In this document: piece after piece, positions 225 through 20,053 of the stretch | How positions within the stretch are numbered: position 1 is the stretch's first letter | Layout: every line of letters starts with the position of its first letter | Source of the DNA: a virus | Length of the DNA: 59,492 nucleotides | Strand: one strand, 5' to 3' | IMG/VR virus record: IMGVR_UViG_3300044940_000188 | Location: 1-59,492 of that record | Position numbers and translations under genes: made by a program | Notes under the pieces: model-generated | What the model was told of the DNA's origin: nothing | Databases searched by the model: none | The model's input: the letters and a program-made list of their open reading frames with translations, nothing else

Positions 225-232
225 GCGGAAAG

Positions 233-255
233 GGGGGAGGGTAGTACCCTCCCCC
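233..255 (+). promoter_or_regulatory. GC-rich hairpin (GGGGGAGGG / CCCTCCCCC, loop TAGTA) between the SSB-like stop and the primase start; no T-run follows
   Basis: Perfect 9-11 bp inverted repeat read directly. It contains the only SD-like purine run upstream of the ATG at 263. Confidence 0.5.
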
Positions 256-262
256 GTCTCCC

Positions 263-3121: not shown

Positions 3122-3131
3122 CAGACGTGCT

Positions 3132-3323
3132 ATGAACTGGTACCTGTTCCAGATCCACCGCGACGGAAAGACCTACCAAGTCGAAATTTCGGCTGAGTCA
3201 CAGATGGAGGCTGAGGAAATTATCAGCCCCATTCCCTATGCAATGTTCGTGGCGGAGGGAGTCCCCCGGCCCGACGGTACGGGGGTGAGTTACCTAGTGC
3301 AAATGCCTGAACGACTCCAGTAA
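3132..3323 (+). CDS. Hypothetical 63-aa protein, last gene of the plus block
   Basis: The ORF starts 11 nt after the primase stop and has a balanced composition. No motif recognised. Confidence 0.5.
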   Translation: MNWYLFQIHRDGKTYQVEISAESQMEAEEIISPIPYAMFVAEGVPRPDGTGVSYLVQMPERLQ

Positions 3324-3587
3324 TCAGATCGGTTTGTTGTTCTTGTTGCGCTTGTACGACCGGTTCGTGTAGCGGTCGACGATACGCAGGTTGCTCTTGG
3401 CATTGGTGCCGCCGTTGCTCAGAGCCTTTTTGTGGTCGACTTCTTTCCCGTCACCCTTCCTGACCTTACCCTCACGCTCGGCTTCACGGCGCGCAGCGTT
3501 GCGCATGGCGCGCTGCTTCTTTGCCTCTTCTGTGCCATGATACTTATCGTAGTACGCTTTGGTGCTCTCACGTGTCGGCTTCTTCAC
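3324..3587 (-). CDS. Small HNH endonuclease-like protein
   Basis: Motif GKEVDHKKALSNGGTNAKSNLRIV (H-N-N). I prefer GTG 3587, which has GAGGA 8 nt upstream. The ORF is open up to GTG 3629. Confidence 0.7.
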   Translation of the reverse strand: MKKPTRESTKAYYDKYHGTEEAKKQRAMRNAARREAEREGKVRKGDGKEVDHKKALSNGGTNAKSNLRIVDRYTNRSYKRNKNNKPI

Positions 3588-4029
3588 GTTTCGTGTCCTC
3601 GATGGTGTAGTGGTGTGGGTTCCTGTCACTGTGAAGCTGTTTCAGGCTCTCAATGGCAGGCATGAGTGAGTCGATAGCAATGCGGTAATCCGCAACCGGC
3701 GGCCTGTCATCTGTCAGCTTACTGCATTCTCTGGCGTCCAACAGGATGCCGGCGCAGGCGATGATGCTGGCAAGATGAGGAACGTTTGTCTCGGGGTCGG
3801 CCCATTCGCCGTTCTGAAACTTGTGCAGATGTCGATGCATGGCGTCGATGTAGATTGATGCCCGCACCCCCGCAATTCGCCAATTGTACTTGCCGTATTT
3901 CAGTGCACCTTCGAGAAATGCCAGCGAGGCGTAGGTCATCACAGATGACGGTACGAGGTGCATCGGCAGCTTGGTCGCGCCGATGGCGTCCTTGGGATTG
4001 GTGTCTTTTGGTTTCAGAGGATCGTTCAT
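3568..4029 (-). CDS. DUF5664-like protein (dATP/dGTP diphosphohydrolase N-terminal-like fold)
   Basis: KLPMHLVP...LEGALKYGKYNWR...DAMHRHL...HLASIIACAGILLD matches my memory of that family. ATG 4029 overlaps the upstream stop (ATGA), so the longer 4197 start is rejected. Confidence 0.55.
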   Translation of the reverse strand: MNDPLKPKDTNPKDAIGATKLPMHLVPSSVMTYASLAFLEGALKYGKYNWRIAGVRASIYIDAMHRHLHKFQNGEWADPETNVPHLASIIACAGILLDARECSKLTDDRPPVADYRIAIDSLMPAIESLKQLHSDRNPHHYTIEDTKREEADT

Positions 4030-4274
4030 CCAGCAAATCTCCTGACCCAGCGCACTACGGCTTTGTGCAGGTTCGCGTTGAAGAAGCGCCGCCAGATATA
4101 CCCACGAATCACACTGACAACGGTAAAGATGCTGGTGATGCCAAGGTTGGAAGCGATGGTAACTTCGTAGCCAAACAACGGCCCCACCATCTGCCATACT
4201 AGCACACTTAACACGAACCCGGAAGCTACGTTCAGTAGCTGCTCAATCAAGCTGACGAGTTTCGTTTGGCCCAT
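4026..4274 (-). CDS. Small membrane protein with 2 predicted TM segments
   Basis: Hydrophobic stretches VASGFVLSVLVWQMVGPLF and LGITSIFTVVSVI. ATG start at 4274. Confidence 0.6.
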   Translation of the reverse strand: MGQTKLVSLIEQLLNVASGFVLSVLVWQMVGPLFGYEVTIASNLGITSIFTVVSVIRGYIWRRFFNANLHKAVVRWVRRFAG

Positions 4275-4768
4275 GCTCTGAGGTCCTCTGGTAGAAACTT
4301 TGACGAAACCCTCACCTTGTACTTCTTGGCAAGACTACGGAAGCCGGCTTCCGGCATGAGGCGGTACTTCTCCAACATGTGCATATAGACACCCACAAAT
4401 TGAGGCCTGTGTGCCTCTATATGTAATGGGTCGAATTGGTCGACTATCCAATGAGCTAACTCATGTAGCAAGGTAGGGGTGTTGGCTCCATGGTATCCTC
4501 GGTTCAGGACGATCTTTTTGTGATCAGTCCAACCGAACACAGTCTTGTCAGGACGATTCGTGATTACCAACCTCGGCACGGGGACGCCGTAGTACTTGCA
4601 AGCATGCTCAACTATGCCTATCAGGTCGGCCCGCTTGGCGGAGTGGTGTACGCACATCCCGATAATCTCCCGCTCCATGGCGTACACGCGCTCGCGTTGG
4701 GGATCGTATTGTGGCCCCGGCTTGGGGCGTTTTCCCGGGTGTGTAATGAGCTTGGAGATCACGTCCAC
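4247..4768 (-). CDS. Putative zinc metallopeptidase (HExxH, SprT/Wss1-like size)
   Basis: Motif TLLHELAHWIV. GTG 4768, or GTG 4762 which overlaps the upstream stop as GTGA. Confidence 0.65.
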   Translation of the reverse strand: MDVISKLITHPGKRPKPGPQYDPQRERVYAMEREIIGMCVHHSAKRADLIGIVEHACKYYGVPVPRLVITNRPDKTVFGWTDHKKIVLNRGYHGANTPTLLHELAHWIVDQFDPLHIEAHRPQFVGVYMHMLEKYRLMPEAGFRSLAKKYKVRVSSKFLPEDLRAWAKRNSSA

Positions 4769-6384
4769 GTCTTGCCATCAATGATGTTGATGAGCGTTCG
4801 CTTGCCATTGGCGTAGATGACGGCGTGCGTGTTAAGCCAGCTGCTTGGTCCCTGCGTGTAGGACAGCTTCAGATATGTGCTCGTGCCTACTCTGTAGTGC
4901 CCGCCCTCGATGGCAGGGCTGTGACTGTGACCGGAAATTACGCGGACGCCAATTTTGGACAGGTTGTTCACCGAGCCCCTTGCGCCATCCGGGCCGCGAT
5001 GCCCGTGGAAGCCGCATTCTATACCTCCAATGAGGCAAGACTCGTCTGGCTTCAGGCAATGGATATCGTCACCCTCTCTCAGCTGCGACTCCAGCCACAA
5101 GGCGAACGGGTCTGGGTAGCTGGCTCCGCCCTCGGCTACTTTTGCCCGCTCGGCAAGGGCGGTGGCTGTCTTCAGGTAGAAGATGGCGTTGGTGGGGTCT
5201 TTCCGCCAGTCCGAGTCCACCAGCCACCGACGGAAGAAGTCGTCATGGTTGGAAGCGACGACGTAAGCCCTGCGCCCCGCCGACTTTTCGCGGATGAAAC
5301 GCACTGCCTCCGCCACCTCTCGGGCAAAATCAGCGCTTCCATTTTTGTGCCTGGCGACTGCTGCAAACGGATCATGGCGTTCGTGTGGGTTGACCGCAAA
5401 GCCGTCCAGCACATCGTGCCAGACGAGAGCTTGAGGGTTCAACCTGTCGACGATCCCGCCGGGACCGAACGTAGCCTTGACTACCTTTGGATCAATGAAT
5501 CTGACATGTGTGTCACCCATCACCAGTCCTAAGGCCGGAGGAGCAGGGCGGGCCGTGCCGTCTGGCAAATACTCAGTATCCAGGTCGATGAACGAGCCAT
5601 CGTCCATGGCGTTGATTTGCCGAAGGTGAAATCGTGGACCATCTAACTCGACGACGCAGGCCCCGAACACATGGTGAAACTCACCCTTCTTGCCCGCCTT
5701 GCTGTCAGTGTAGTTCTGGACAGTCACCGCACCAGTCGTGGTCATGATCTTAGGCAGGGCACCGTGAGGCGTTGCAATTGTCCGCAAAGCTATCTTTGAA
5801 TGGCCGAGGATGCCTGATTCGCCGTGGGTAATGCCTTCGAACCCGGATAGCGGATGCTGAGCAGTGGGGACGGTCTTGATGTCCCCAAGCAGGATAAGGT
5901 GCTTGCTCAGGCGTTTTCGCTGATTGTGCAGGTACGGCGTGATGGCTGGATCCCACACTTCAGCGTTTTGCTGCGATTCGCTCCACCGGGAAGTAGGGTT
6001 TTTATAACGAGTCGGTATGACTACGAGGTCGGCACCCCAAACCGAACAGTAACCCTTCAGTGCTTCTAGGAACCCCGCATGGACTGGAGTGGCGTTCTGA
6101 GCCGACGTCACTACGAGCCGGCGGCTGGTCAGGTTTCGTTTGAACTGTGGCCGACCGACGCGCTTGTTTGTCCCATTCTGCTTCGCCACGTACCCATCTT
6201 TTGGTGTAGTCGTGCTGTAGCAGTATAAGTCTTCGCCGCCACTTTTTGTCCTACACCCCCACCTCACTCGACCAGAAGGAGTACGGGCTAGGCGGATCAT
6301 TTTGCGCCCACAACGTGGGCACGAGGGGCGGTCGCTATCTGAGGAAGACTGCTTCGCGCGCGAAGACTGCTGCTTGTCGGTCAT
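4759..6384 (-). CDS. Calcineurin-like metallophosphoesterase with an N-terminal zinc ribbon
   Basis: CPRCGRKM...WGCRT at the N-terminus. Phosphoesterase motifs GDTHV, SNHDD, GFHGHRG and SGHSHSP. GGAG lies 9 nt upstream of ATG 6384. Confidence 0.75.
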   Translation of the reverse strand: MTDKQQSSRAKQSSSDSDRPSCPRCGRKMIRLARTPSGRVRWGCRTKSGGEDLYCYSTTTPKDGYVAKQNGTNKRVGRPQFKRNLTSRRLVVTSAQNATPVHAGFLEALKGYCSVWGADLVVIPTRYKNPTSRWSESQQNAEVWDPAITPYLHNQRKRLSKHLILLGDIKTVPTAQHPLSGFEGITHGESGILGHSKIALRTIATPHGALPKIMTTTGAVTVQNYTDSKAGKKGEFHHVFGACVVELDGPRFHLRQINAMDDGSFIDLDTEYLPDGTARPAPPALGLVMGDTHVRFIDPKVVKATFGPGGIVDRLNPQALVWHDVLDGFAVNPHERHDPFAAVARHKNGSADFAREVAEAVRFIREKSAGRRAYVVASNHDDFFRRWLVDSDWRKDPTNAIFYLKTATALAERAKVAEGGASYPDPFALWLESQLREGDDIHCLKPDESCLIGGIECGFHGHRGPDGARGSVNNLSKIGVRVISGHSHSPAIEGGHYRVGTSTYLKLSYTQGPSSWLNTHAVIYANGKRTLINIIDGKTWT

Positions 6385-9300
6385 TCAGGTTCGCTCCATA
6401 GGTTTGCGTGCGCACCTCACGTTCACGCTTGTTTCGCAAAGATTGAAGCAGACCAGTGATGCTTATCGGGGCGTCTGGGTACATTTTATTGTGTCGAACA
6501 GCTTCGCCAATGAGTCTACCGCGTTCGGACGGGTCGGCTTTCAGTATGCGTGTAACAATATCCTGTTTATGCTCGGCGGCAAGGCGCGACCGACTGATGA
6601 GGTATTCCCGCTTGTCGTAGAAACGAGAAACCGACGTCGGGGTAAGGCCAATGCTCTGAACAAACAGGTCAAACGGAGAAACGTCATCCGCTGGAACGAG
6701 TACGTCACCCCGAGTAGACGTGATGCCTTCGGTAGCAAAACGGCCAGCGCGCAGGAAATCGCGGACAATCTTTGGTACGACAAACTCCAAACCACGGAAG
6801 AACCCGCGCACGTCACCGTTGGCAGACGCTTCCATGACTTGCTGGAAGCCACGCCCCCACTGCACGCCGATACCGATCCACGGTCCGCCGAAAGACGTAA
6901 CCGCACTACCAAGGAACGAGTCGGCGTTCTCCGGCCGTAGGTCGGCCATGAAAATGGACCCCATCGAAAGCCGCTTCGACATGTCGACGCCCAGGGCTGC
7001 CGGTATACCCTTGGCAGCAGCTTCAGCCAACGCCGGCGAGCCAGTGATCGCTGCAAGGTTTTTCTGGAACCACCAGTCGAACGCCTGCCCGCTGACCGCC
7101 GACGCCGCATCGTACGGCTCGTCATCGTCGCCAAACAACGCAAGCACCAGACCGGCAGCCCACTTGATTGGCTGGAACATGGTGCCCGTTACGCCGGCAG
7201 CGAGGGTGTGGGTGGCAAGCATGTTTAGGAAGACGCGCTTGGCTTCCTTGTCACCTTTCGTCCACTTGTACAGGTTCATGCCCATCATGGCATACATGTG
7301 CTGAGGCCACTGCATGAACTGTGTCACAAGAGGAGCACCGGCACCGAGAGGCCCGTTCGTCTGGAACCACCGCGGCTTGTTGGCGCCACCGTAGTTGAAC
7401 TGCGTCGTAGAGACAGCGGTCTTGGCGTACATCGTGGCCTGTCGGTCAGCTTCAACCTCACCGACAGCCTCTACCACCTCGTTGTACTTGAGATCGTAGG
7501 CAGCGATGGCCACCAGCACGCGGTTGTTCACCTCGGTCAAGTGGGCCATGATGCGAGAGGCGTCGAGGATACGCTGGGTGGGAGAGAGGTCCTGCCCCTC
7601 AGCAATGTCGCGCAGCTCTGCGATCCACGACAGGTCGATGACGTTGTTCCGCCGCAGCTCAGTCAGCATGGCGATGTACTTCTCCCCCCTGCCGTCCGGC
7701 AGGCTGGAGTCATTCCGGATCTGGTCGATGATCTGGTCGATGACCGAGAACGCCTGCTCAGCCGCCACCTTGCCTGTCAACTTGCGTGCAGCTGCGATAC
7801 CGCCCTTTGAGTCAACTACTGCCTTGAGCAGCGGCGACTTGATGAGATTCTGTGCCATACCCAAGGCAGCGCTAGCGGACCGCCAGCCGTACCGGGCGGC
7901 CAACCACGGCAGCGTGATCAGCCATGGCTGGGTGGCGTTGGTCATCCAGTACGCAGGTGTGGTGAGAGAAATGAACTGCGCGAACTCCGTCCCACGCTTC
8001 ACGATGTTCACAATGTCTGGCAGCTCGGCCATCTGCTCGTCGCGCTGCCTCAGCTCGTTCACCACATCACCCCGTCGCACCGCCGAAATCTCGTCGGTAC
8101 CACGGGTCCGCTTGGCGAACTCGTCCATGTCTCGCAGGTGCCGACCAAGCTGCCAGCCGTACTGCAGCTGTGAGGTGTAGTACGCAGATTGCTTAGCGTA
8201 GTTGGCGAAGTTCCGATGCTGGATGTCGTAGTCCACGCCCAGCCGGTTCTTGCGACGGATCTCATGCTTGCGGAAGCTGGAGTCCGCCAGCGACCGTAGG
8301 TAGAAGTTCTTGATTGCCGCCTGCGCCGCCTTGTTACCTTCCAGATTACCGAGAATGGAGGCAAGAGCCGAGTTCGACTGAATCGCCGCGTCCTGCGTGA
8401 ACTGTGACCGGCGTTGCACGTCGGACACAGCGTCGGCGCCGTAAGTTTCAACCATCCGCTGGCGAATCTCCTCCGCCTCCGTCCGCGACTCAGCTGTACT
8501 GAATTCTTTCTCAGTGACCCGCACTTCGAATTTGTTGTCGACCTTGAACACACCGACATCCAGCGTTGGGTCATCGCCACGCTTTGTCGCGGCATACGCG
8601 AATGCCTCCTTGCTGTCGGTGAACGTCTTGCGCTCTACCTCGCGCGACGCATACACGACAAAGTCACCGTAGCGCATTAGGGGGAAGTAATCACCCTGCC
8701 GCATTTCCGGCAAGCGGGCAAGCTGGGCTATCGTCGCCTTCATATCAGGCGTAGCGATGTCACCGATCATCTCATTCAGCTTCTCCGGGGTAATCCCAGA
8801 GAGCTTCTTGAGCGTGAACGTATCTTCGAACGTCTCTAAGTCGAGCGGAGCGCCGGCGCCAGTGGCCAACACCGCTCGCAGAGCGTTCTGCAGAATCAGA
8901 GTAGATTCCTCGGCAAGCGCGTTGCGGTAGTACGCCTGCAGGTCATCGTACATCTGTCGATACTCTGACGGCATGGCGAGATACCGAGCGTTCAGCTCTG
9001 ACCAGCGCTGCTTCGCCGTCGGTGTAGTCAGATGGCTGTTTCGAGGGCTAGTTACCGCCTCGCCGGGCGACACGCGGTACAGGCTAGCCTCAGTTGCTAC
9101 ACGTGACAGCTCGATAGCCGCTGCAGGGTCCTTCTGTTGCAGCGTAGTCCACCGCTGCATGATTTTCTCGGCACGCTCCATCAAGCGAGAGTTCTCAGCA
9201 GCCCGCTTGAAGTACGCATCCATGTAGGCAGTCAGCGGGTTACCCTGCGGACCTTGGAACCCGTCGGCGTACAGGTCCCGAATTTGCTCCATGGTCATTG

Positions 9301-12300
9301 CACCAAGAGGTGGCACGGCCATGTCACGGATGCGCTTGGTCCACTTGCTTATGCTGGTGTGCTTCTCAAGAATGGCAGCTGCTGGGGCACGAAGTACCGC
9401 GTCTGGCAGACGTACTTCAAGCGCGTCAGTCATGTCTACTTTCTCGCCGGTGAACAGCTCATCGGTCATCGAGAAGATCACGTCGAGCACGCTGGTTTGT
9501 ATCGGCTTGACAGGTTCGGGCAGACCAAGAACTCGCCGCACCAAAGCCTTGAACGCATCCCACGCCGACTGTATTCGTGACCCAAGAGTTGGAGGTGTGA
9601 CGGGCGGAGGAGCTGGCACACGCTTCAGAACCGCGCGCAGTTCCAGATTTGTCCATGCCTCAGCCAAAAACTCGTCAATGGGGTTTGGCCGCCCATCAAT
9701 CTTGGTCCTTTCAAGGCCGTAGCGCACGTACTCAGTCGGTGGCAAACCGCCCATTTTATTTTCAAGATACTGCCGGACGTGCTCACGCAAAGCCGTCAGC
9801 TCAAGAGCAAACCAAGGCTTATTGCGCAGGGCGCCATGAGTTGCTGCATGCGTCAATTCATGCAGTATCGTGTACGATTTTAATGCATCACCACGTGCAC
9901 TAAGTCCGGTGTCACCGTAGAACCTTAGCAGGACCGTCGGGCGCCCGTTCAAGTTGCGGACGAACGCAGCGGCGGCACCCTTCTTAAGACGGCGCCCGAA
10001 GTCGTAGCGAATCACCACATCGTCGAGGTTCGACATCAGCAGGCGCTGAGCGATGGCGTGGAACGGGTGCCCCTTCGGTATCTTCCGCATGAACACGTCA
10101 AGCGCATCATTGGCCGCCATGCCGGAACCAAGCTGGTTGATCGCCGCATCAATCTCGTCAACAACCGCCGCGAACTCCTCACTGTAGAGGTCCGGGTCAA
10201 TCGCCCGCATGAACAGGTCAGTTTCCTCGTCCACCGGAGTAGACCGAGCCTTGGACTCGACAGCGGCAAGCTGCTCACGGGCTTCCGGGCTGGCAGTCCG
10301 CCGGGCCGCGACCACAATGCTTGGCTCTGCCGGCGGCTTGAGGCTCAGCATGATCTCCTTGGCCTGCTGCTTGAGGAGCTTCTTCGACTGCAAGGCATCC
10401 GCAACTAGGCGCACCGAACGAGACTTGTCGCCAATCTTGATGGTACCGATAGCAGGCGTATTACCTTGATGCCACACGCCAAGTGCCTGCAAAGCACGCA
10501 CCAGTCGCTGTTCAGCCCTCACCATGCCATTGATCGTCGTCTTGGTGTTGCTGACACGCTTGAGGAAGCGGTCGATCACTCCAGCAACACGGGAATACAG
10601 CTCAGCCTGCTGCTGAACGTTTGCAGGGATGGCCTGCTCTGCTGCAACAGGTGTCCGCATGAACGTCGTAGCAATATCCGGACGCGCCCATTGCGGCAGG
10701 GGAGTGGTGATTTCTGGGATCTCCATCTCGCGTCCGAGACGACGAATATCCTCCAAAGCCGTGGAAGTGTCACCGGTGAGCCTAGGCTCCACAAGCGGCA
10801 CCTTCACGTCGTACCCGAACGCGCGCACGAGTACAGTAGTATCTTTCTCCTTGCCTACCCCAGGCCGCGCCTCGACTCCAAGCTCTTCAAGGGCTGCAAA
10901 CAGCTTCTGCCCGGCAAGTCGGGCTGCTCCAGTAGTACGAGCAGCAGCGAGGTTGTTGGAATATCGAGTGAGTACTCCGAGCACACGACTGTTGAGGACC
11001 CTGTCGCGGGCGATTTCGGACTGTTCCTTCCTCTCAGCAGACCTAGCGGCGATCTCCCGTGTCTCCTGAATCCGCTTGAAGATGCTTGCAGAAGTGCCTT
11101 CACGGATGAGTGGAGAAGCGGAGACTTCCGGCGTGTACTCCTCGCCAGTAACTCGGTCGACTACACCGAGCAGCGTCTCGTACTTTAGTCGAGCTTGCTT
11201 GTCGAGATTCTCGTCGGTGATCTTGGTGTACCGCTCAAACCGCCGGCGTGGCTTCTGCCCTTCTGGCGGCGGCTCTGAAGACTCTTCGTACTGCAGCACC
11301 CCATTCTCGTCGAACGTGTAACCAAGCTGCAGAAAGTACTTCGCAGTACGCTGCGTCAGCTCAGGAGGAGTGCGTTTGTCGCGCAGCATCCTCTGCAGGG
11401 CGTACTGGACGGAATCCATCTCAGCAACGGTGGGCTGGTACGAAAACCAGCCATCAACCATGAACGAGTCCGCGAACTTTTGCATGACCGGCATGATCAT
11501 GTCACGGAAGTACATGGATTTTTTCATCCCGACGTCCGTGAGTTCCCTGCCGAGCCGAACAGCAGCGACGTGCTTGGCGTGCAGAGCTGCGTCGCGATTA
11601 GCTCTGCTACGGTCGAGCACGAATTTGCGGAATGCCTGATCGCCGGTGATCAAACGGAGGCTGCCACGTAATGAAGATTTCATAACCTTCGCGTAATCAG
11701 CGGCGAAGGCCTCATCAGACATACCGTTGACCTCGTTGAGGAACTCAATCAAGTCCTCAATCTGGTTTAAGGCAGGTGTAGACGGGTTGTTAGCGTTGTA
11801 GGCGAACTGCGCGTAGTCGCGCAGAGAACGCAGATATGCCAAGGCGTACACCAGTTGGGTACGCTTGGCCTGGTCAGTTTCAGCTGGCAGCACTTCGTTG
11901 CGGTACCGCGTCAGCATTTCATCAGTCTTGGCGATAGCAGTAGCCAGCTTGGGACGCAGGCGGTCGGCCCGTGCGACCCGCTTCTTGCGCTCCTCCGGTG
12001 TCTCGTCCTGCACCCGCCAAAAGTTGAGAAGCACGTCAGCAGAGTAGGCAGATGTGACTTCGTAGATGTCAGCGGCTTTCGGCGTGGGCTGTGCTTTCTC
12101 CACCGCCTTGTCCATCTCCGCTATGGCAGCTTCCAAGGACACCCTTTGCAAAGGCGTGACCTCGTTGCCGGCCAGTCGAACGTTTTCAGCTGCATCACTC
12201 AGTTTCTTGAACGCCTCAACGTACAGTCTACGGTTGCGCGGTGCACCAAACTCGACATCCTCGGGAGCGTAGTACCCCTCGACCATCCGCTGCTTCGCCG

Positions 12301-15300
12301 CCTTACGTTCGACGGTCTTCGCACCGGTAGGCATCTGCCCAGAAAACCCGTAACGGTTAGTTCCGCCAGTCTGTTCATCCCGCCGGAACCTCGCCTGCCG
12401 GGCTCGACCGACGTTCTGATTGGTCTGATACATGACCTGAGCACGTTGAATAATCTTGCGTTTCAGACCCGGCGTAGTGGCGCGGTCATACAGCTGTTTG
12501 ACCACATCCTTGTCACCAGTGATGATCTGGCTGACGGAGACGTCAAATTGAATACCCTCATCAGCAAGAGCGCTAGTCAGCTCATGGCTGAGCAGCATTT
12601 CACCGGCCGCAGTGGCGCCCTCCTCGATCTCCTGCTCGGTCAGCTTGTTGGCCCGTTTGACCTCATCCAGAGACTCCAGCCGCATTACGCCAAGCTCATT
12701 AAGCCGCTCGATAGGCTCATCTTGAGTCTCTTCGACAGCAGCTACTGCTTTGAGATAGTCCTTGACGAGCTTCTGCTGAGTATTCCTGAGCGACTCGAGC
12801 TGGGCCTCTAGCTCAGCCGCCTCATTGGACTTCTTTTTCCTACCTTTGAAGGCGGCCAGCTTCTTCTTGACTTCTTCGATCTTGTCGTTGTTCCTGAGAA
12901 CCTTGTTGCCGGCGTTGGCTACCCGTGCAGCGGCGTCCTCTGGGGCACGAGCTCGGCGCGGTAGACCGGCGATGTAGTTGACCGCCTGGGCAAACAGTTC
13001 GTCTAAACGGAAGATAGCCTCGTCCTGCGCCAGCTCCTTCTCCGACGGAAGGGCATTACGCATAACCACACCCGGACGAGTGGCCAACGTCACAAGCCGA
13101 ACAAGCTCGTCTTCCGGTACGAGGTCGACAGTGTCGAACACGCTACGGCTAATATCCTCGCCGACAGGTATATCCAGCTGCCGCGTTTTTGCTTCAGCAG
13201 CCGCCTCCGGCGACAGTTTGGACGCTACCTCAATCGGCCGTGAATCCACTTTCTGCGAGGCACCACCGAGCTTGCGGGTCTTACTAAGTGTGTCCAGAAC
13301 ATCGTCAAGACGCTCAAGCTCGATGGCATAACGGATGCGGTCGCCGACAGTAGCGAACTCCTCAATGTCATCGAACTCATAGATGTTCAGCAAACGGGGC
13401 TTGGCGCCCTTGCGTGGTGTCACAGTCGAAGCGAAATTGACAAACCCACGAAGCTCCTCGAACGCCTTGGCGTACAGGTCGGCATACCGGGCATCACGGA
13501 AGGTAAGATCCTCCGGCGCGAAAAAGCCGCCAATACGACGACTGGCTGCGGCACGCTGAGCCTTGGCGCTGCGAGAAAGTAAGCGGGAGGCAGCGCGGCC
13601 GGGAGTCTTGGACTTGAGGACCTCCTGCTCCTCCTCCGGCGTGATCACCCCCTCCTCAACGAGTTTGTCAGTCTGCTCAAGGAACTCATCACGGGCCTTA
13701 GTCTCGGCACGCTTCTTGGCGCGCTGCTTGCGCTCCTGCTCGATCAGTCGGGCACGACGGCGGAGAGCCTGCTGAGCGGAGATGATGACTGCTCGCTCAC
13801 CGATTTGTTCAGCGAGAGCATCGGCCTCTGCGTACGTACCAACAAGCGTTTCACGGACGACAGCCCCGGTCGGTGTGCGCTCCTGCACGACATACCTGCC
13901 AGCAAGAGGCTTCCCTGCTCCAGCACGTGTGAGAAGACCAAGGATCTCCTGCATGTCCTGACCCTGAGCCTTCAGTTCGAGGGCCATGTCAGCAGTGGGG
14001 CGGTCGCGTACAATTAGCAGACCGCCCTTATCGTCGAAGTTACCAAGCTGCACGCCGCGACCACGAATGACTTCGGAAACACGGTCGCGGTTGAGTCGGG
14101 CAATGTTGTCCCTGGACAGGTACACCCCGAGACGGTCGCTGGTTTCATCCTCCATGTCATCGAGCTGGGCCTCAATGTCAAGGAGCGGCTCGGCCGTAGG
14201 TTCGTCAGGCTGCTTCACCTCCGGAACCGGCTCAGCCTGCTTGCGTAGTTCTGCAGTCGGCACGATGGAGAACTCCACCGTGTTGAACTCGGAGTCCATG
14301 ATGTACCGGGCAAGCGCGGCCTGCGCCGAGTCGGAGTCCGGGTGCGGCTCATTCACCACCACGTTGCCGTCCTCGTCGCGCCCGATAAGCCGGTAGACGT
14401 CGGCGGTAGACCGCTGACGCCGCTGGACCATTACAGTATTTCCAGTTTTCTCGGCTCGACGCCGAAGAGGCTCTGCAGCCGCTTCTGCTTCGGCAAGCGT
14501 CGGGAAAGTCTTTCGTGACTTGACCTGCCGATCACGGTCGACAACGGAGACTTCATACTCGACCGGTGCCTGAGCGGTTTCATCGGGCTGAGTTACCTCT
14601 TCAACAGACTGGACAACCGGCGCCGGCTCAGGGCGCGGAAACGGAGCCTGATCAAAAATTTCGATCTGCCGCTCATCGGGCAGGACGCCGGGCGGCTGTG
14701 ACAGGTCACGCTCCGGGGGCGGCTGCGGCAGCTGGCCGCGGGCGGGCGGCAGCAAACTCATGGTACCGCCGGGGATAGGCTGGGTCAGCTCGCGCTGCTC
14801 GGTAATCGGCCTTGGCGGCGGTGGCGGTAAGTCAAGCTGGTACTGCCGGAGTCCCATCTGGCCCGGGTCAAGCCCGCCATCCTGAATGGACCGCTCGATG
14901 CCCTCCGACCCGGGGATTGGGACGTACTCGAACATGTCCACCTGCGCCTCGTTCGGCGTGGCGGGCGGACGGATCTGCGGTACCTGCTCCAGTAGCTGCT
15001 GGGTGCGGGCCTCCACGGCCTGCTGCCAGCGAGCCTGCGCGGCGGCGGCACGAGCCTTGGCGTCTTTCGGGGCCTTGGGGGAGATAGGCTTCGGCTTGCT
15101 CTTGGCCAGCTCGGCCTCAGCCTGCGCCCTAGCGGTCGCCCGCATGGCCGCCTGCTCACGCTCAGCCTGCAGCTCACCAGAGTCCTGCAACACCACCGGT
15201 CGACCGGTGGGCTTACCCGACCGGTCGTACGGTTGTGCAACACGTGTAGTGAACTGCTCACGGGCGCGCAGGGCAGCGGCAACGGCGGGGTCAACCGCGT

Positions 15301-16576
15301 CCGCGGCGGACTGCCCGGGGGTAAACAGGTCGCCTTGCGTCTGGTTTTGCCCAATGCGGACGCCGCTCGGGGTAGGACCAAACACGGACTCGAACGACTC
15401 GCCGGGAGTACCGCGGTTGACTGCGGCCTGGTCCTCAGTGGAAGCCCCCGACGGCGGAGCCTCGGACGGCACTTTCGGGCGCTGCCGGCGACCAAGCGCC
15501 ACTGAGAAGCCACCACCGATAAGGCCGCCCAGCACGCCGCCCTCAACAGTGGCCTCAAGAACACCCTCGCTCGCTCCGCGGGTCTTGTCATACGTCTGAG
15601 CAGCGATGTTCTGAACGTATTGCTCAACGGCCGACTGCGAAACTTCCTGCGGCGCCTCTGCAATGGCGCCCCGGCCTAGCCGCTGAAGTACAGTACCAGT
15701 CGCACCTTCTCCCACGATAGGTGTCCAGAGACGCCCAGCTGCGGAGGAGATAGCTCCTACAATCAGGCCGGCAAGCAGCGGGCGAACACCCTGAGCCTCG
15801 GCCGCAAGAGCCTCACGCGCCTCAGACTCAGTCATTGTCTTGCGCAACTCGGCGTAGCGAGGAGACTGCATGAGCTCCTCTTCGCGGGCAGACGCTACCT
15901 CCTCATTAATCTGATTGGCGAGGGCGCCCATCGAAATGGTCGCTTCGGACGCTCCAAGGTAGCTAATAGCCGCGGGCGAGGCACCCAAACGGAACATGAT
16001 GATGGACGGCAGCAGAGTGGCTAGCGACGATGGGACGGCTTGCACCAACTTCGTACCAACAGAAGCAGCTGTCTCCAACGGATCGTCGAACTGGAAAATC
16101 GACTTGGTCGGATCAAGCGTAGTCCACTCACGTGAAACGCGTTCGACAACCTCCGGGCGGAGAGTCTTGTACATCTCCTCACGGATGTTACCGAGGTACT
16201 GACGGACAGCACGAAACGGGGTGTCGAGGCCCATCTCCGGAACAATGCCCGGTAAAGCCTCACGAGCTTTGCGCTCCCCCTGTCCTACCAGATACTCGCC
16301 AGCACCGGCCAACGCCTCGCCGACACCAACAAGTTCTGCCCCGAACAGAGTGGAAAGGCCACTCTCGCCCTTGGGCGGGCGCGGCTTGATGCCGCCACCA
16401 AGCTCCCAGAGAGGCGGCAGGGCACGGTCGACCGGAGAAGCGCCGGCACTGTACTGCTCGACAAGGGCATCCGCCTCACCTTGAATGTCGGGCAGAGGCG
16501 GGAGGTCGAGCGGGTCAAGAGCTCGAAGTGGACCGAAATTCTTCTCGTACTGCCGGCGAATGCTTGACATGGTCAC
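6335..16576 (-). CDS. Giant (3413 aa) polyvalent-type virion protein with a zincin HExxH domain and a PLxRFG-like motif
   Basis: Uninterrupted 10.2-kb ORF. ILHELTHAATH is at 9848-9862, with downstream DEFLAEAW. YFPLMRYGDF is at 8666-8683. The N-terminus has Gly-rich hydrophobic segments, Pro-rich linkers follow, and the C-terminus has hydrophobic segments. Confidence 0.85.
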   Translation of the reverse strand: MTMSSIRRQYEKNFGPLRALDPLDLPPLPDIQGEADALVEQYSAGASPVDRALPPLWELGGGIKPRPPKGESGLSTLFGAELVGVGEALAGAGEYLVGQGERKAREALPGIVPEMGLDTPFRAVRQYLGNIREEMYKTLRPEVVERVSREWTTLDPTKSIFQFDDPLETAASVGTKLVQAVPSSLATLLPSIIMFRLGASPAAISYLGASEATISMGALANQINEEVASAREEELMQSPRYAELRKTMTESEAREALAAEAQGVRPLLAGLIVGAISSAAGRLWTPIVGEGATGTVLQRLGRGAIAEAPQEVSQSAVEQYVQNIAAQTYDKTRGASEGVLEATVEGGVLGGLIGGGFSVALGRRQRPKVPSEAPPSGASTEDQAAVNRGTPGESFESVFGPTPSGVRIGQNQTQGDLFTPGQSAADAVDPAVAAALRAREQFTTRVAQPYDRSGKPTGRPVVLQDSGELQAEREQAAMRATARAQAEAELAKSKPKPISPKAPKDAKARAAAAQARWQQAVEARTQQLLEQVPQIRPPATPNEAQVDMFEYVPIPGSEGIERSIQDGGLDPGQMGLRQYQLDLPPPPPRPITEQRELTQPIPGGTMSLLPPARGQLPQPPPERDLSQPPGVLPDERQIEIFDQAPFPRPEPAPVVQSVEEVTQPDETAQAPVEYEVSVVDRDRQVKSRKTFPTLAEAEAAAEPLRRRAEKTGNTVMVQRRQRSTADVYRLIGRDEDGNVVVNEPHPDSDSAQAALARYIMDSEFNTVEFSIVPTAELRKQAEPVPEVKQPDEPTAEPLLDIEAQLDDMEDETSDRLGVYLSRDNIARLNRDRVSEVIRGRGVQLGNFDDKGGLLIVRDRPTADMALELKAQGQDMQEILGLLTRAGAGKPLAGRYVVQERTPTGAVVRETLVGTYAEADALAEQIGERAVIISAQQALRRRARLIEQERKQRAKKRAETKARDEFLEQTDKLVEEGVITPEEEQEVLKSKTPGRAASRLLSRSAKAQRAAASRRIGGFFAPEDLTFRDARYADLYAKAFEELRGFVNFASTVTPRKGAKPRLLNIYEFDDIEEFATVGDRIRYAIELERLDDVLDTLSKTRKLGGASQKVDSRPIEVASKLSPEAAAEAKTRQLDIPVGEDISRSVFDTVDLVPEDELVRLVTLATRPGVVMRNALPSEKELAQDEAIFRLDELFAQAVNYIAGLPRRARAPEDAAARVANAGNKVLRNNDKIEEVKKKLAAFKGRKKKSNEAAELEAQLESLRNTQQKLVKDYLKAVAAVEETQDEPIERLNELGVMRLESLDEVKRANKLTEQEIEEGATAAGEMLLSHELTSALADEGIQFDVSVSQIITGDKDVVKQLYDRATTPGLKRKIIQRAQVMYQTNQNVGRARQARFRRDEQTGGTNRYGFSGQMPTGAKTVERKAAKQRMVEGYYAPEDVEFGAPRNRRLYVEAFKKLSDAAENVRLAGNEVTPLQRVSLEAAIAEMDKAVEKAQPTPKAADIYEVTSAYSADVLLNFWRVQDETPEERKKRVARADRLRPKLATAIAKTDEMLTRYRNEVLPAETDQAKRTQLVYALAYLRSLRDYAQFAYNANNPSTPALNQIEDLIEFLNEVNGMSDEAFAADYAKVMKSSLRGSLRLITGDQAFRKFVLDRSRANRDAALHAKHVAAVRLGRELTDVGMKKSMYFRDMIMPVMQKFADSFMVDGWFSYQPTVAEMDSVQYALQRMLRDKRTPPELTQRTAKYFLQLGYTFDENGVLQYEESSEPPPEGQKPRRRFERYTKITDENLDKQARLKYETLLGVVDRVTGEEYTPEVSASPLIREGTSASIFKRIQETREIAARSAERKEQSEIARDRVLNSRVLGVLTRYSNNLAAARTTGAARLAGQKLFAALEELGVEARPGVGKEKDTTVLVRAFGYDVKVPLVEPRLTGDTSTALEDIRRLGREMEIPEITTPLPQWARPDIATTFMRTPVAAEQAIPANVQQQAELYSRVAGVIDRFLKRVSNTKTTINGMVRAEQRLVRALQALGVWHQGNTPAIGTIKIGDKSRSVRLVADALQSKKLLKQQAKEIMLSLKPPAEPSIVVAARRTASPEAREQLAAVESKARSTPVDEETDLFMRAIDPDLYSEEFAAVVDEIDAAINQLGSGMAANDALDVFMRKIPKGHPFHAIAQRLLMSNLDDVVIRYDFGRRLKKGAAAAFVRNLNGRPTVLLRFYGDTGLSARGDALKSYTILHELTHAATHGALRNKPWFALELTALREHVRQYLENKMGGLPPTEYVRYGLERTKIDGRPNPIDEFLAEAWTNLELRAVLKRVPAPPPVTPPTLGSRIQSAWDAFKALVRRVLGLPEPVKPIQTSVLDVIFSMTDELFTGEKVDMTDALEVRLPDAVLRAPAAAILEKHTSISKWTKRIRDMAVPPLGAMTMEQIRDLYADGFQGPQGNPLTAYMDAYFKRAAENSRLMERAEKIMQRWTTLQQKDPAAAIELSRVATEASLYRVSPGEAVTSPRNSHLTTPTAKQRWSELNARYLAMPSEYRQMYDDLQAYYRNALAEESTLILQNALRAVLATGAGAPLDLETFEDTFTLKKLSGITPEKLNEMIGDIATPDMKATIAQLARLPEMRQGDYFPLMRYGDFVVYASREVERKTFTDSKEAFAYAATKRGDDPTLDVGVFKVDNKFEVRVTEKEFSTAESRTEAEEIRQRMVETYGADAVSDVQRRSQFTQDAAIQSNSALASILGNLEGNKAAQAAIKNFYLRSLADSSFRKHEIRRKNRLGVDYDIQHRNFANYAKQSAYYTSQLQYGWQLGRHLRDMDEFAKRTRGTDEISAVRRGDVVNELRQRDEQMAELPDIVNIVKRGTEFAQFISLTTPAYWMTNATQPWLITLPWLAARYGWRSASAALGMAQNLIKSPLLKAVVDSKGGIAAARKLTGKVAAEQAFSVIDQIIDQIRNDSSLPDGRGEKYIAMLTELRRNNVIDLSWIAELRDIAEGQDLSPTQRILDASRIMAHLTEVNNRVLVAIAAYDLKYNEVVEAVGEVEADRQATMYAKTAVSTTQFNYGGANKPRWFQTNGPLGAGAPLVTQFMQWPQHMYAMMGMNLYKWTKGDKEAKRVFLNMLATHTLAAGVTGTMFQPIKWAAGLVLALFGDDDEPYDAASAVSGQAFDWWFQKNLAAITGSPALAEAAAKGIPAALGVDMSKRLSMGSIFMADLRPENADSFLGSAVTSFGGPWIGIGVQWGRGFQQVMEASANGDVRGFFRGLEFVVPKIVRDFLRAGRFATEGITSTRGDVLVPADDVSPFDLFVQSIGLTPTSVSRFYDKREYLISRSRLAAEHKQDIVTRILKADPSERGRLIGEAVRHNKMYPDAPISITGLLQSLRNKREREVRTQTYGANLNDRQAAVFAREAVFLR

Positions 16577-18501
16577 TGCGTTGGCATAGCGGTACGGTTG
16601 GCGACAGAAGCACGGAGACGCTGCACGTCTTCGGCAAGTTGATCAAGCGTACCATTCTCGTAGTGCTGCATTACCAACGCCGCAATCTCAGCCTCAGTGT
16701 ACTGAGTCCTGTCAGGATACAGCGTCTTAATTTGACCCATCAAATTGCGCAGCTGACGTGCAACAGGAGCAGTAGCAGGGTCAAGCTCGAGTGCCTCGGT
16801 CTCGCTCCTGAAGTAGTCGAGACCTGCTTTGATGTCACTTTGACGGATACCGCCGCCGACACCGCCGCGACGGGCAACGAGAAGGCGAGCAGAGCCATCC
16901 ATAAGATTCGCCTTCGCGTTGGCCAGAGAAGCAGCGGCCTGCGCAGCCTGCAGTCGCATAGTAGACTCTGCCATCGGCTTGTCGATTTCCTGCCGCTGCT
17001 CATCCTGCATGAGCTGTTCACGCCAATCCTTGGTCCACACGCGCCACGCTTTCGGATCGCTGAAGTTCTCGATCATGCTAGCGAGGTACTCGGGGGTGAT
17101 TACCTGCGGATTGCCAACCGGTTTCCCGGTCTTCTCATCAAAACCCATACCGATCAGCTGCCCTTTGTAGACGCCAAAGCGCACGTCAGAACCGTTAGGG
17201 AAGTACTGATACGCAACTGTGAGAGCACGAGTAGCGGCAGGGATATTTCCAGCAGCAAGGTACTGAAAAGCGGCGCGAGCATTCAAATCAAAGCCACGCA
17301 TCTGCATGTTGACTACCGTTCTGTCAACTTCGTCGATGGCTTCGGCCTCTGACTTGCCCATCGCAACCGCGTCAGCAACCATCGCCTCACGCTCTTTCGC
17401 CCACTCCATGGTGGAGTAGCGAGGAATTTCGTCAGGAGAAACCTGAATCTGGTCGTAGGGTATCGGCTCAGCACTTTCACCCGGCATGCTGAGAGTGCGA
17501 TTGCCGGCCTGCGGGTTGGGGGCAACCGACGGAACCGGAAGTGCAACGCTAGGGGTCACAGCGCCACCAGCAGTGGGTTGCGGCTTGGGTTGTGGTTCGG
17601 GCTGCAACTCAAGCTGTGGCTGCTCAACAGGCAAAGCGGACCTGAGCGGCTGACCAGCGTCAGGAGAAGGTCGAAAAACGCCAAGAGTCAGATCATCAGC
17701 AGCACCGAGAGCGCGTACACCAATATCCCCCAGAAGAGTAGGATCCTCATCAGGGCTAAGCTCCATACCGAATCGCTTGCGGTACTCCTCCGTGTCGGTG
17801 CCGGCGACCTTGACGCCAGTATTGGCCAGATGCGAAAGCGCTCCTAGCTGAAGAGCAGCGCCACCGACACCGCCGCGGGCAATTCGACTGCCTTCCGGTA
17901 GCTTGCCCTTCACTGTATCTTTGATCTTGGAGCCCATCGACTTCTTCGTCGTGGTGTCGTTGACGAAGTCGACCGGCCGCTTAGCTGGCCCGCGTTCCAA
18001 CTGTTCCGCGATGCGATTCCTAGGCGGCGATTCACCACGAGCACGGCGAGCCTGACGAGCTTTCCAGTCTTCCAAACTCTCACTGGTTACACGCCCGCCC
18101 TCGGCGTACGGTAGAGCACGACGAAAGTCGAACGGCTGCGAAAGCACAGTGACGGCTTGCTCTGGCACAACGACACCAGCAGGAGTGATCGTCCCCGGAA
18201 GAGCAACGGTTTGCGAAGGAACAACGCCAGGAGCATTGGCACCGAGCTTGCTCTTCAACCACCCAAACAGACGCTCACCGTAGGTCGGCGGAAGCGACCC
18301 GCGACCGCCTTCGCGTAAAGGAAGTCCCGCCCGTTGCCGCGCCCGGTTGACCGCACTAAGCCGTCCCTCGTTCTTCAGCTCACGGTCCTGAATCTCAGTG
18401 GCGAGAAGCCGCTCTTCCTGACGGGCGCGACGAGCATCAGTAGCGGCCTGATAGCCGCTTTGAAGACCTTGTACGAATGCACCGAACGGGTTCTGAGGCA
18501 T
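16573..18501 (-). CDS. Large virion or ejection-type protein (642 aa), function unknown
   Basis: Its stop overlaps the giant gene start (GTGA). Contains a PEPQPKPQP linker. No enzymatic motif recognised. Confidence 0.7.
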   Translation of the reverse strand: MPQNPFGAFVQGLQSGYQAATDARRARQEERLLATEIQDRELKNEGRLSAVNRARQRAGLPLREGGRGSLPPTYGERLFGWLKSKLGANAPGVVPSQTVALPGTITPAGVVVPEQAVTVLSQPFDFRRALPYAEGGRVTSESLEDWKARQARRARGESPPRNRIAEQLERGPAKRPVDFVNDTTTKKSMGSKIKDTVKGKLPEGSRIARGGVGGAALQLGALSHLANTGVKVAGTDTEEYRKRFGMELSPDEDPTLLGDIGVRALGAADDLTLGVFRPSPDAGQPLRSALPVEQPQLELQPEPQPKPQPTAGGAVTPSVALPVPSVAPNPQAGNRTLSMPGESAEPIPYDQIQVSPDEIPRYSTMEWAKEREAMVADAVAMGKSEAEAIDEVDRTVVNMQMRGFDLNARAAFQYLAAGNIPAATRALTVAYQYFPNGSDVRFGVYKGQLIGMGFDEKTGKPVGNPQVITPEYLASMIENFSDPKAWRVWTKDWREQLMQDEQRQEIDKPMAESTMRLQAAQAAASLANAKANLMDGSARLLVARRGGVGGGIRQSDIKAGLDYFRSETEALELDPATAPVARQLRNLMGQIKTLYPDRTQYTEAEIAALVMQHYENGTLDQLAEDVQRLRASVANRTAMPTQ

Positions 18502-18504
18502 GTG

Positions 18505-19530
18505 TTACGACAGCGCGAGACGACGCTGCTCCTTAGCCGGGGTGTGATACTTAGCAACGAGACGATCGAAGAACTCCTGTCCCTTGATCCGCACAACATC
18601 TGCTGGGATGACGTACTCGCCGTCAGACGCCATGATCGGCACAGTGTCGTCGATGCCAGACCCATCACCCAGCCCAGTCGCGATCATACCGTCCGTACCG
18701 TCTGTCTGCACGGCACCGCCGTCGGCGAGACCAGCGGCAGCTCCAATGATAGTGCCAACACCGCCAAGCACACCTGCCTTCTGCCCGAGCCTTGCGTCCC
18801 AATGGGCCATTTGGTTTGCATATCCTTGATTGAGGATGTTGGCCTGCTGACCGTACCCTTGCAGCGCCCCACCGAAGTAAGTAGCCGCACCTTGCATAGC
18901 ACCGGCAGACGTGCCGGTAGTCTGGTTGGCACCGCCAACAGCCGCCTGACCTGCACCGACAGCACCGCCGTAACTCTGAGCCACGTTAGACAGCGAGCCG
19001 CGGCCGAGATTGACGACGTCCGACCGAAGCGCCCGGCCTACATCCTCAACACGCCGGTTAGCAGAGGTGGCAGCGGCAGCTTGAGCGGCGGCTTGCTGCA
19101 CGCGAACGCTGACGTCGAGAGCAGCGTTACGGGTCTGCGATGGGTCTACGCCGTACGACTCAATTCGAGATAGAGCGTTACGCCGCTGAGCGTCAAACTG
19201 CTGACTGACATCAGCAATCGCCGCGGCCCGCTCCTGCGCACGCCGAGCGGCGGTGTCGTACCCTTGAGCCTCGGCGATGAACTGGTCCTCGATAGGACGG
19301 AACACAGTCTCATATCGCTGCCGGTCTTCTCGAGCGATACGGGCTTGCTCTTCCATCGCTGGCAACTGGACGTCGAGCACCCGATTGAGAATCTCGCGGT
19401 TCATCGCGTCCTGCTCTTTGGCCCACGCAAGTTGATCGAGCGCCGTCTGACGCTGAATTTCGGCGACCTCTCTGCTGGCATTGGCGACGCCAGAAAGGTC
19501 AGGCGGAGGAGGCGGATCACTGCAGCACAT
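18505..19530 (-). CDS. Virion or ejection-type protein (341 aa) with coiled-coil and Gly/Ala/Gln-rich regions
   Basis: AGAGGG lies 8 nt upstream of ATG 19530. N-terminus is MCCSDPPPPP; the C-terminus contains SDGEYVIPADVV. Confidence 0.7.
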   Translation of the reverse strand: MCCSDPPPPPDLSGVANASREVAEIQRQTALDQLAWAKEQDAMNREILNRVLDVQLPAMEEQARIAREDRQRYETVFRPIEDQFIAEAQGYDTAARRAQERAAAIADVSQQFDAQRRNALSRIESYGVDPSQTRNAALDVSVRVQQAAAQAAAATSANRRVEDVGRALRSDVVNLGRGSLSNVAQSYGGAVGAGQAAVGGANQTTGTSAGAMQGAATYFGGALQGYGQQANILNQGYANQMAHWDARLGQKAGVLGGVGTIIGAAAGLADGGAVQTDGTDGMIATGLGDGSGIDDTVPIMASDGEYVIPADVVRIKGQEFFDRLVAKYHTPAKEQRRLALS

Positions 19531-20053
19531 CGTTCGAACCCTCTACCTTCTTCGAGTAGAACATCGCCACAGGGCGATATCCTCTGCTTTCCAAAAACGG
19601 CCCGATATCCGGACCACCGACAGGTCCTTTTGAGGACATGCCAATGTACTTGCAGCCGAGCTTCGCGAGGATGTCTTCGGCGTACTTCAGCAGTTTTGAG
19701 GCCAGCCCTTGCCCCCTGACCTCCGGACGCAAGAAAAATGCATCTTCGCGACCGATCAGGGAACCACGGGAGTGGGCATCCCTGTAAACGTAATACTGCA
19801 GGTATCCTACCAGCTTCTTGTCGACACGTACAGTGAACAGAACAAACTTGGCTTCACGTTCCAGCTGTGCCCACTGGGCATAGTCTGGATCAAGCGGGGA
19901 GTCAAGGTACAAGGTCTCAGTCTCTGCATAATGCAAAGCGTGAAGTTCCCGCAATTCGTCCACTACCTGGCTGATTTTCTCAATGCCAACCACGGTGCCG
20001 ACAGCAACATCAAGCGGGGCAAAACCATAATACGTAACCTCAAGTCGGCCCAT
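19517..20053 (-). CDS. GNAT-family N-acetyltransferase
   Basis: FFLRPEVRGQGLASKLLKYAEDIL matches the acetyl-CoA binding R/Q-x-x-G-x-G/A motif. 178 aa. Confidence 0.8.
   Translation of the reverse strand: MGRLEVTYYGFAPLDVAVGTVVGIEKISQVVDELRELHALHYAETETLYLDSPLDPDYAQWAQLEREAKFVLFTVRVDKKLVGYLQYYVYRDAHSRGSLIGREDAFFLRPEVRGQGLASKLLKYAEDILAKLGCKYIGMSSKGPVGGPDIGPFLESRGYRPVAMFYSKKVEGSNDVLQ

Follow-up and report, generated by a model that had tools for sequence, protein, structure and literature searches.

The 59,492-nucleotide stretch of viral DNA analysed here (IMG/VR virus record IMGVR_UViG_3300044940_000188, positions 1 to 59,492; hereafter the window) encodes on its minus strand a protein of 3413 residues (hereafter the giant), and profile comparisons indicate that both ends of this protein, an N-terminal hydrophobic module and a zincin-type HExxH domain of the C1 type, are related to gp50 of phage N4, the virion RNA polymerase (vRNAP) of a Schitoviridae phage. 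We therefore read the giant, with a probability of roughly 0.7, as a virion-packaged ejection protein of a ~60-kb podovirus that belongs to the PLxRFG/LPD39 class of polyvalent proteins and is built on a delivery scaffold resembling that of N4 gp50. Within the PLxRFG class it is an enzyme-poor variant, in which the scaffold carries only proline-rich linkers and two conserved blocks (B and C).

An initial annotation of the window, made from the letters alone, had described a 10.2-kb open reading frame (ORF) taking up 17% of the genome, with ILHELTHAATH, DEFLAEAW and YFPLMRYGDF motifs, glycine-rich hydrophobic N-terminal segments and proline-rich linkers, and each of these features is present (Table 1). 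HELTH is the only HExxH in the giant, while 0.010 HExxH and 0.006 PLxR[FY]G motifs are expected by chance from the composition of a protein of this size. A search for relatives among 5.8 billion proteins returned 29, of 2583-3610 residues and mostly on contigs of ~60-65 kb. In the alignment of the resulting 30 family members (33-41% identity) H2239, E2240, H2243, E2302, F2303 and E2306 are invariant and the G.YFP..R[FY]G motif is nearly so. Mapping of the relatives onto the giant resolved four conserved blocks, A to D, with unconserved linkers in between; proline makes up 12-14% of residues 401-800. Block D extends from residue ~2000/2160 to the end and comprises, in this order, the zincin, LPD39, the PLxRYG motif and a C-terminal domain that NCBIfam calls tail-700, with an uncharged glycine-rich run at residues 3220-3238.

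The C-terminal part places the giant in its class. We scanned the whole giant and ten overlapping 400-residue windows against Pfam at E <= 10 and found LPD39 as the sole match, with no other LPD domain; matches to CARD and DAO fell below cutoff and were taken as noise. The NCBIfam profile for the PLxRFG C-terminal domain matched across positions 24-679 of its 681 (283.9 bits versus a curated cutoff of 100). These two assignments bear out the initial placement of the giant among the giant polyvalent or virion proteins, although PLxRFG, there attributed to Iyer et al. 2017, is NCBIfam's name, and Iyer et al. name the adjacent domain LPD39. PLMRYG is an F-to-Y variant of PLxRFG and aligns with GPYFPLxRFGD of Klebsiella phage LASTA, Serratia phage Parlo, Ochrobactrum phage POI1126, Pseudomonas phage Skulduggery and Erwinia phage Pavtok, with 781 residues from the motif to the C-terminus in the giant versus ~683 in the annotated relatives. 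All six annotated giants that we extracted (2307 to ~5000 residues) place GPYFPLxRFGD ~680 residues before the C-terminus and HExxH 380-520 residues upstream of it. Since this spacing is kept, zincin, LPD39, PLxRFG and tail form an invariant core of the class, and the fixed core that the giant has in common with it amounts to its C-terminal ~1270 residues. A tblastn search with the last 1054 residues matched 37 phage records at 22-26% identity, including Rhizobium phage RHph_TM27A, LASTA and Klebsiella phage SopranoGao, annotated with a 'PLxRFG protein', Parlo, Sinorhizobium phage PBC5, POI1126, Agrobacterium phage Atu_ph08 and Skulduggery, all of them ~60-kb phages with the giant gene in the equivalent place, after an acetyltransferase and virion proteins. 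Residues 1-2359 found no match among phages by tblastn, megablast of the giant gene found none among known phages, and PDB searches returned nothing for the tail profile (residues 2400-3413) or for the giant as a single-sequence query.

Profile searches and AlphaFold models of single domains, the kind of check that the initial annotation had proposed, returned zincin-type matches and a zincin topology for the HExxH region, besides the PLxRFG match described above. The AlphaFold2 model of residues 2140-2420, computed from a 22-sequence alignment, has a predicted local distance difference test (pLDDT) score of 81-94 across its first 215 residues and consists of N-terminal helices, a three-stranded sheet, the long HExxH helix and the EF..E helices, as in zincins. 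A profile search of the PDB with this region matched 9sfn_G ('Internal virion protein', E = 2.8e-14), which is gp37 of LUZ19/phiKMV, as well as 23sg_S ('gp10', E = 6e-8) and 8vb2_A ('Tetrameric ejection protein (gp48)', E = 1.2e-7); the last of these is a chain of the ejectosome solved for Pectobacterium phage PhiM1, where gp48 is the core protein of T7-gp16 type (PMC11440229). The HExxH segment of LUZ19 gp37 in turn matches N4-like vRNAPs (tblastn, 5e-8). Alignment by hhalign of 36 zincins from PLxRFG giants with nine N4-like C1 domains gave 98.5% probability (E = 1.6e-15), versus 0.2% for the reversed control, and the sole HExxH of N4 gp50 (LIHELVHAST...NEFMAWGLAN) lies at residue 2228 of 3500, versus residue 2239 of 3413 in the giant. 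The zincin of the giant is, on these profile matches, homologous to the C1 domain of N4 vRNAP, to LUZ19 gp37 and to PhiM1 gp48. E2302, located 59 residues after the second histidine, is likely the third metal ligand, judging from the retention of this glutamate in all three of these proteins. Two zincin subtypes can be told apart: an HE..HAAT form in the giant, RHph_TM27A, an extra copy in Parlo, N4, LUZ19 gp37 and PhiM1 gp48, and an HEaFHSG form in LASTA, POI1126, Skulduggery and the core copy of Parlo. The Parlo giant (L004:7340-18634) thus has two zincins, one of the HExxHAAT type at residues ~1095-1335 that matches the window zincin (1e-21) and the core HEaFHSG-type domain at residue 2557.

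At the other end, a hidden Markov model (HMM) of block A matched the giants of Parlo (residues 339-643, 3e-26), Pavtok (5e-24) and RHph_TM27A (2e-17), and also residues 296-518 of N4 gp50. Because the region is rich in glycine and alanine, the N4 match was checked with shuffling and reversal controls: the N4 segment scored 34.3 bits against the block A HMM, whereas none of 2000 shuffles of matched composition exceeded 8.7 bits, and hhalign of block A with eight N4-like N-terminal domains (NTDs) gave 96.9% probability (E = 1.7e-10, 29% identity, 139 columns), versus 0.1% for the reversed control. Individual N4-like NTDs scored up to 45 bits against the HMM (Salmonella phage UTK0001). N4 gp50 has predicted membrane-spanning helices at residues 224-278, and its NTD on its own inserts into nanodiscs (PMC13434306); in the register of the alignment these residues correspond to ~140-194 of the giant, overlapping the first of its two transmembrane-like segments. 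On these scores block A is homologous to the membrane-inserting NTD of N4 gp50.

Between these ends lie blocks B and C. The structure model of block B is confident (pLDDT 84), with the glycine-rich loop as its lowest-confidence part, and the block has 24 invariant residues, including this loop with its conserved lysine. The loop (GLLTRAGAGKP) was considered as a Walker A motif and rejected, as it does not fit GxxxxGK[ST] and is modelled with low confidence; it could bind a ligand or be a place where the protein is processed. A fold search with block B against solved structures gave no match (best E = 0.76), nor did a PDB profile search. In BFVD the fold search matched nothing but parts of further giants from phages, among them one annotated as 'Large polyvalent protein associated domain-containing protein'. 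When 1.84 billion representatives were searched exhaustively with its profile, block B was recovered in 302 clusters, and nearly all full-length matches are giants of 2000-6600 residues with the domain at residues ~400-900. Among the 95 matches of at least 2000 residues, 37 have the arrangement A-B-C-zincin-tail and 27 combine block B with zincin and tail. The giants with block B reach 6641 residues, and in two of 4400-4700 residues from a different class (P0091, P0072) block B is directly followed by InPase, an SNF2-type helicase and ART-PolyVal are also present, and a C-terminal LPD38 replaces LPD39/PLxRFG, with an additional methylase domain in P0091. Since block B is shared by 302 clusters at a fixed position, including giants of the P0091/P0072 type, it is a shared, position-fixed and unnamed module and not a lineage-specific effector. 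Block C gave no match in the PDB profile search or Pfam.

The zincin is the sole enzyme-type domain detected in the giant: Pfam, NCBIfam and PDB profile searches detected no SLT, N6-adenine (N6A) methylase, SNF2 helicase, ART, InPase, lysozyme or nuclease domain in it, and an SLT domain is present in two family members (P0004, P0009). This bears on the proposal of the initial annotation that the giant is an effector countering host defences. In such a scheme host restriction or other immunity would be neutralised by injected domains with new enzymatic or inhibitory functions, namely blocks B and C and perhaps also LPD39 and the zincin, and the scaffold would be no more than their delivery vehicle. 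Relatives in the class do carry methylase, helicase, ART or InPase cargo, LPD39 is listed among the 'potentially enzymatic' domains by Iyer et al. (PMC5512222), a gene that takes up 17% of the genome is costly and implies a strong benefit, and block B is kept in ~300 clusters of giants, with 24 invariant residues and a lysine-containing glycine-rich loop. However, nothing typical of an enzyme or inhibitor emerged for block B or block C when Pfam, NCBIfam, PHROGs, PDB profiles and folds were searched, the fixed position of block B beside block A across very different giants fits a scaffold better than a swappable effector, and the regions between the blocks are unconserved even within the family. 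The giant is without the enzyme domains of its relatives and its conserved parts are those that it has in common with ejection proteins, so the effector proposal is not supported and we regard it as unlikely.

The annotation carried by relatives would make the giant a DarB-like antirestriction protein that methylates or remodels incoming DNA to escape type I restriction, and its best PHROG match is indeed phrog_10089 ('DarB-like antirestriction', E = 4e-51). This match is limited to profile positions 3775-4634 of 4647, which correspond to the shared tail and not to the methylase/helicase part; methyltransferase and helicase domains, readily found in LASTA and Parlo, were undetected in the giant, and no P1 record is among the tail tblastn matches, leaving this assignment without support and highly improbable. 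A highly divergent N4-type vRNAP that transcribes early genes after injection, as might be suspected from the near-equal sizes (3413 versus 3500 residues), the near-coincident HExxH positions and the homologous N-terminal module and C1 zincin, is effectively refuted, as the N4 RNA polymerase domain (residues 998-2103) matched nothing in the giant or in ~180 related giants (phmmer, filters off), hhalign of blocks B and C with it gave 0.1% and 0.8%, no match to mini-vRNAP structures in the PDB or to a vRNAP PHROG was obtained, and the would-be polymerase region is the least conserved in the family, opposite to what is expected of a polymerase.

As an ejection protein, the giant would be packed in the capsid in a few copies, as loosely folded beads on a string, and leave through the tail ahead of the DNA or together with it. 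Its N-terminal module, anchored in the inner membrane, would make up the innermost part of the conduit, while the remainder, including the C-terminal block, would enter the cytoplasm. The zincin would hold a metal site, either a structural one that acts in packaging and refolding or that of an autoprotease by which the modules are separated; Iyer et al. state that N4 gp50 is packaged without processing (PMC5512222).

Several results weigh against this reading. Packaging and ejection of the giant are argued from homology and analogy. The Foldseek search of the PDB with the zincin model ranked only HExxH zincins at the top, namely anthrax lethal factor (E = 0.038, the best value), ACE2, the BlaR1 protease domain and Ste24, and all were below significance; lethal factor is the structure by which Iyer et al. 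tied the N4 HExxH domain to zincins (PMC5512222). The Pfam MPTase-PolyVal HMM did not match the giant at E <= 10, although its zincin is homologous to the N4 HExxH domain that Iyer et al. name MPTase. BLASTP of all neighbours of the giant against N4 gp51-gp59 gave nothing significant. We had also considered an N4-like three-gene ejection operon, which was dropped: the 642-residue ORF next to the giant is close in length to gp51 (644 residues), but without sequence similarity. When the zincin was removed on both sides, hhalign of the tail (~1000 residues) with N4 C2 gave a low, no more than suggestive score (9.3%, E = 0.0035, 39.6 versus 24.3 for the reversed control), and because the tail alone gives 9%, the colinear alignment of the full C-terminal parts (95.8%, 1005 columns) is driven by C1. 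Finally, residues 440-2150 (~1700 residues) could hold an activity invisible to the tools used.

A broader and more tentative proposal, which we would not yet favour, is that PLxRFG giants and Schitoviridae vRNAPs descend from one ancestral ejection scaffold, comprising the C1 zincin, the membrane-inserting module of the N-terminus and perhaps the complete C-terminal domain (CTD), into which different cargos have been inserted. N4 vRNAP would then be a polyvalent protein with a polymerase as cargo and the giant a near-minimal or novel-cargo form, whose blocks B and C would either bring new activities into the host or belong to the conduit without being enzymes.

The giant gene is located in a late/virion block with conserved synteny, in the order endolysin/spanin, acetyltransferase, 341-residue virion protein, 642-residue ORF, giant and 541-residue protein (Table 1), which agrees with the earlier description of its context as after a lysis cassette and among ejection-type genes. 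Elsewhere the window has the gene content of a podovirus: capsid protein, portal, terminase, tail fibres, DNA polymerase, primase and helicase. The database copy of the giant has 3411 residues, starting from an ATG at 16570 (codon 3), and is labelled 'hypothetical protein' by JGI/IMG; no clear Shine-Dalgarno sequence precedes the GTG or the ATG start. In this start region (16570-16576) the GTG overlaps the stop codon of the upstream 642-residue ORF by 4 nucleotides (GTGA), which suggests translational coupling. Neither PHROGs nor Pfam gave a match for this upstream ORF, which is also dissimilar to the co-positioned 962-residue protein of RHph_TM27A; by its position only it is a candidate co-ejected partner. 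On the other side, the longest ORF for the 541-residue 'DNA transfer protein' overlaps the final 50 nucleotides of the giant ORF; because its phrog_1745 match begins at residue 81, the true start may be further downstream. On the contig of one relative (L024) the giant is not followed by a gene of comparable size. The lysis cassette (20040-21734, minus strand), composed of the GH108 endolysin, a 104-residue ORF, the Rz-like spanin and a 133-residue ORF, interrupts the block of virion genes midway, with the gene of the internal virion protein on one side and that of the acetyltransferase on the other; it lies 5' of the giant, whereas the lysis genes of Parlo, Skulduggery and Pavtok lie 3' of it. 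Further along, a 209-residue protein (3568-4197, minus strand) matches the dATP/dGTP diphosphohydrolase N-terminal domain (Pfam PF18909, E = 7.9e-24), and its best PHROG label, 'endolysin; inhibits RNA polymerase', looks misleading. An enzyme of the nucleotide pool may be a hint that the phage DNA contains modified bases.

Table 1. Features of the giant and of neighbouring genes, with positions in the window
Feature	Residues of the giant	Position	Strand	Basis or remark
Giant ORF	1-3413	6335..16576	-	3413 codons from GTG; single ORF; 17.2% of the 59,492-bp window
Block A, Gly/Ala-rich hydrophobic module	60-445	15242..16399	-	Conserved in the family
Block A core, N4-like NTD homologue	~216-360	15497..15931	-	hhalign; N4 residues ~300-442
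Transmembrane-like helix LVQAVPSSLATLLPSIIMF	177-195	15992..16048	-	In the register of the predicted membrane-spanning helices of N4
Second transmembrane-like segment	263-285	15722..15790	-	Hydrophobicity
Linker, Pro-rich, poorly conserved	446-780	14237..15241	-	Mapping of relatives
Block B	788-1000 (conserved to ~1045)	13577..14215	-	Small alpha/beta units and a long helix
Block B Gly-rich loop G..T.AG.GK	880-889	13910-13939	-	Invariant
Variable region	1050-1520	12017..13429	-	Unconserved even among family members
Block C	~1525-1795	11192..12004	-	Weakly conserved, 21-34% identity
Zincin-type HExxH domain	~2150-2345	9542..10129	-	AlphaFold2, PDB profile, hhalign; equivalent of N4 vRNAP C1
ILHELTHAATH	2237-2247	9836-9868	-	HELTH at 9848-9862
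DEFLAEAW	2301-2308	9653-9676	-	EFLAE at 9659-9673
LPD39 domain	2415-2571	8864..9334	-	Pfam PF18858, E = 1.5e-12, 48.1 bits versus cutoff 27
YFPLMRYGDF	2630-2639	8660-8689	-	PLMRYG at 8666-8683, residues 2632-2637
Tail-700, PLxRFG C-terminal domain	2690-3401	6374..8509	-	NCBIfam NF032893, E = 2.8e-84
541-residue 'DNA transfer protein'		4759..6384	-	phrog_1745, E = 2e-149; 3' of the giant
642-residue ORF		16573..18501	-	Directly 5' of the giant
341-residue virion structural protein		18505..19530	-	phrog_8003; 43% identity to a 362-residue protein of RHph_TM27A
Acetyltransferase		19517..20053	-	Syntenic marker of the phage group
Rz-like spanin		20405-20962	-	Same cassette as the GH108 endolysin
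GH108 + PG_binding_3 endolysin		21225-21734	-	5' of the giant in transcription order

Between a sixth and a quarter of the genomes of these phages is given over to giant virion proteins, and the usual 'DarB-like antirestriction' label comes, for the giant of the window, from a match to the shared tail only. As the conserved part is a delivery scaffold with both ends homologous to N4 gp50, this label should change, and function should not be carried over to the giant from the PHROG or GenBank names of its relatives. The two-ended homology with N4 gp50 points to one delivery scaffold common to vRNAPs and polyvalent giants, joining research on polyvalent proteins with that on podovirus ejectosomes. 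The enzyme-poor subfamily, with at least 37 clusters at 50% identity that have the A-B-C-zincin-tail arrangement, represents several dozen uncultured phage lineages and could be used to tell apart what the scaffold does (packaging, threading, anchoring in the membrane and whatever role the invariant HExxH site has) and what the cargo does. If descent from an ancestral scaffold holds true, the subfamily would offer a natural enzyme-free model for the threading of megadalton proteins through a phage tail.

Among known systems, the T7-gp16-type ejection proteins, which are internal to the capsid and ejected to form the inner DNA conduit (PMC11440229), resemble the giant in the HExxHAAT...E[FLM] zincin-type domain of LUZ19 gp37 (9sfn_G) and PhiM1 gp48 (8vb2_A). 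These two proteins are shorter (~1250-1340 residues) and have no detectable similarity to the giant outside the zincin, and proteins of this type have an N-terminal lytic transglycosylase, whereas the giant is without a lysozyme or SLT domain. The polyvalent proteins of Iyer et al. 2017 (PMC5512222) share with it LPD39, the zincin that these authors call MPTase in N4 vRNAP and the late or virion context, and block B is common to the giant and the ART-PolyVal/InPase/LPD38 giants; the set of several distinct catalytic activities per chain that defines them was, however, undetected in the giant.

Also among the known systems is the class of ~60-kb podoviruses that comprises the Klebsiella phages LASTA and SopranoGao, Serratia phage Parlo, Erwinia phage Pavtok, Ochrobactrum phage POI1126 and Rhizobium phage RHph_TM27A, together with Bcep22 (gp75) and JC1 (gp69). 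The comparison with Bcep22-like phages made in the initial annotation holds up here, as the gene order is common to Bcep22-, LASTA-, Parlo- and RHph_TM27A-type phages and the homologue from the Bcep22-like phage JC1, gp69 of 4515 residues, has been identified by mass spectrometry of purified virions, with earlier virion mass spectrometry on Bcep22 cited in the same paper (PMC9144972). PLxRFG giants of this class are alike in the C-terminal core (zincin, LPD39, PLxRFG and the ~700-residue tail) and in genome position, and those of Parlo, Pavtok and RHph_TM27A also have block A. The giants of LASTA and Parlo differ in carrying an N-terminal SLT transglycosylase, an N6-adenine methylase and an SNF2/ResIII helicase with LPD39, where the giant of the window has blocks B and C instead, and those of LASTA, POI1126 and Skulduggery differ in their HEaFHSG zincin, while that of the window is of the HExxHAAT (N4/gp16-like) subtype.

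N4 gp50 has an RNA polymerase domain, which the giant is without, and the PLxRFG motif is absent from N4. The NTD of gp50 is a membrane-inserting domain that also docks onto the protein of the periplasmic tunnel. The 2026 structure paper on N4 divides the gp50 CTD into C1 (residues 2124-2375, with the HExxH) and C2 (residues 2376-3500, helical and without a structural homologue) (PMC13434306). In overall size, module order, N-terminal module, C1 domain and the long helical region after the zincin, N4 gp50 and the giant are alike, and the giant, like gp50, which has been described as an analogue of T7 gp16 with a beads-on-a-string organization (PMC13434306), is probably also a string of beads joined by long linkers.

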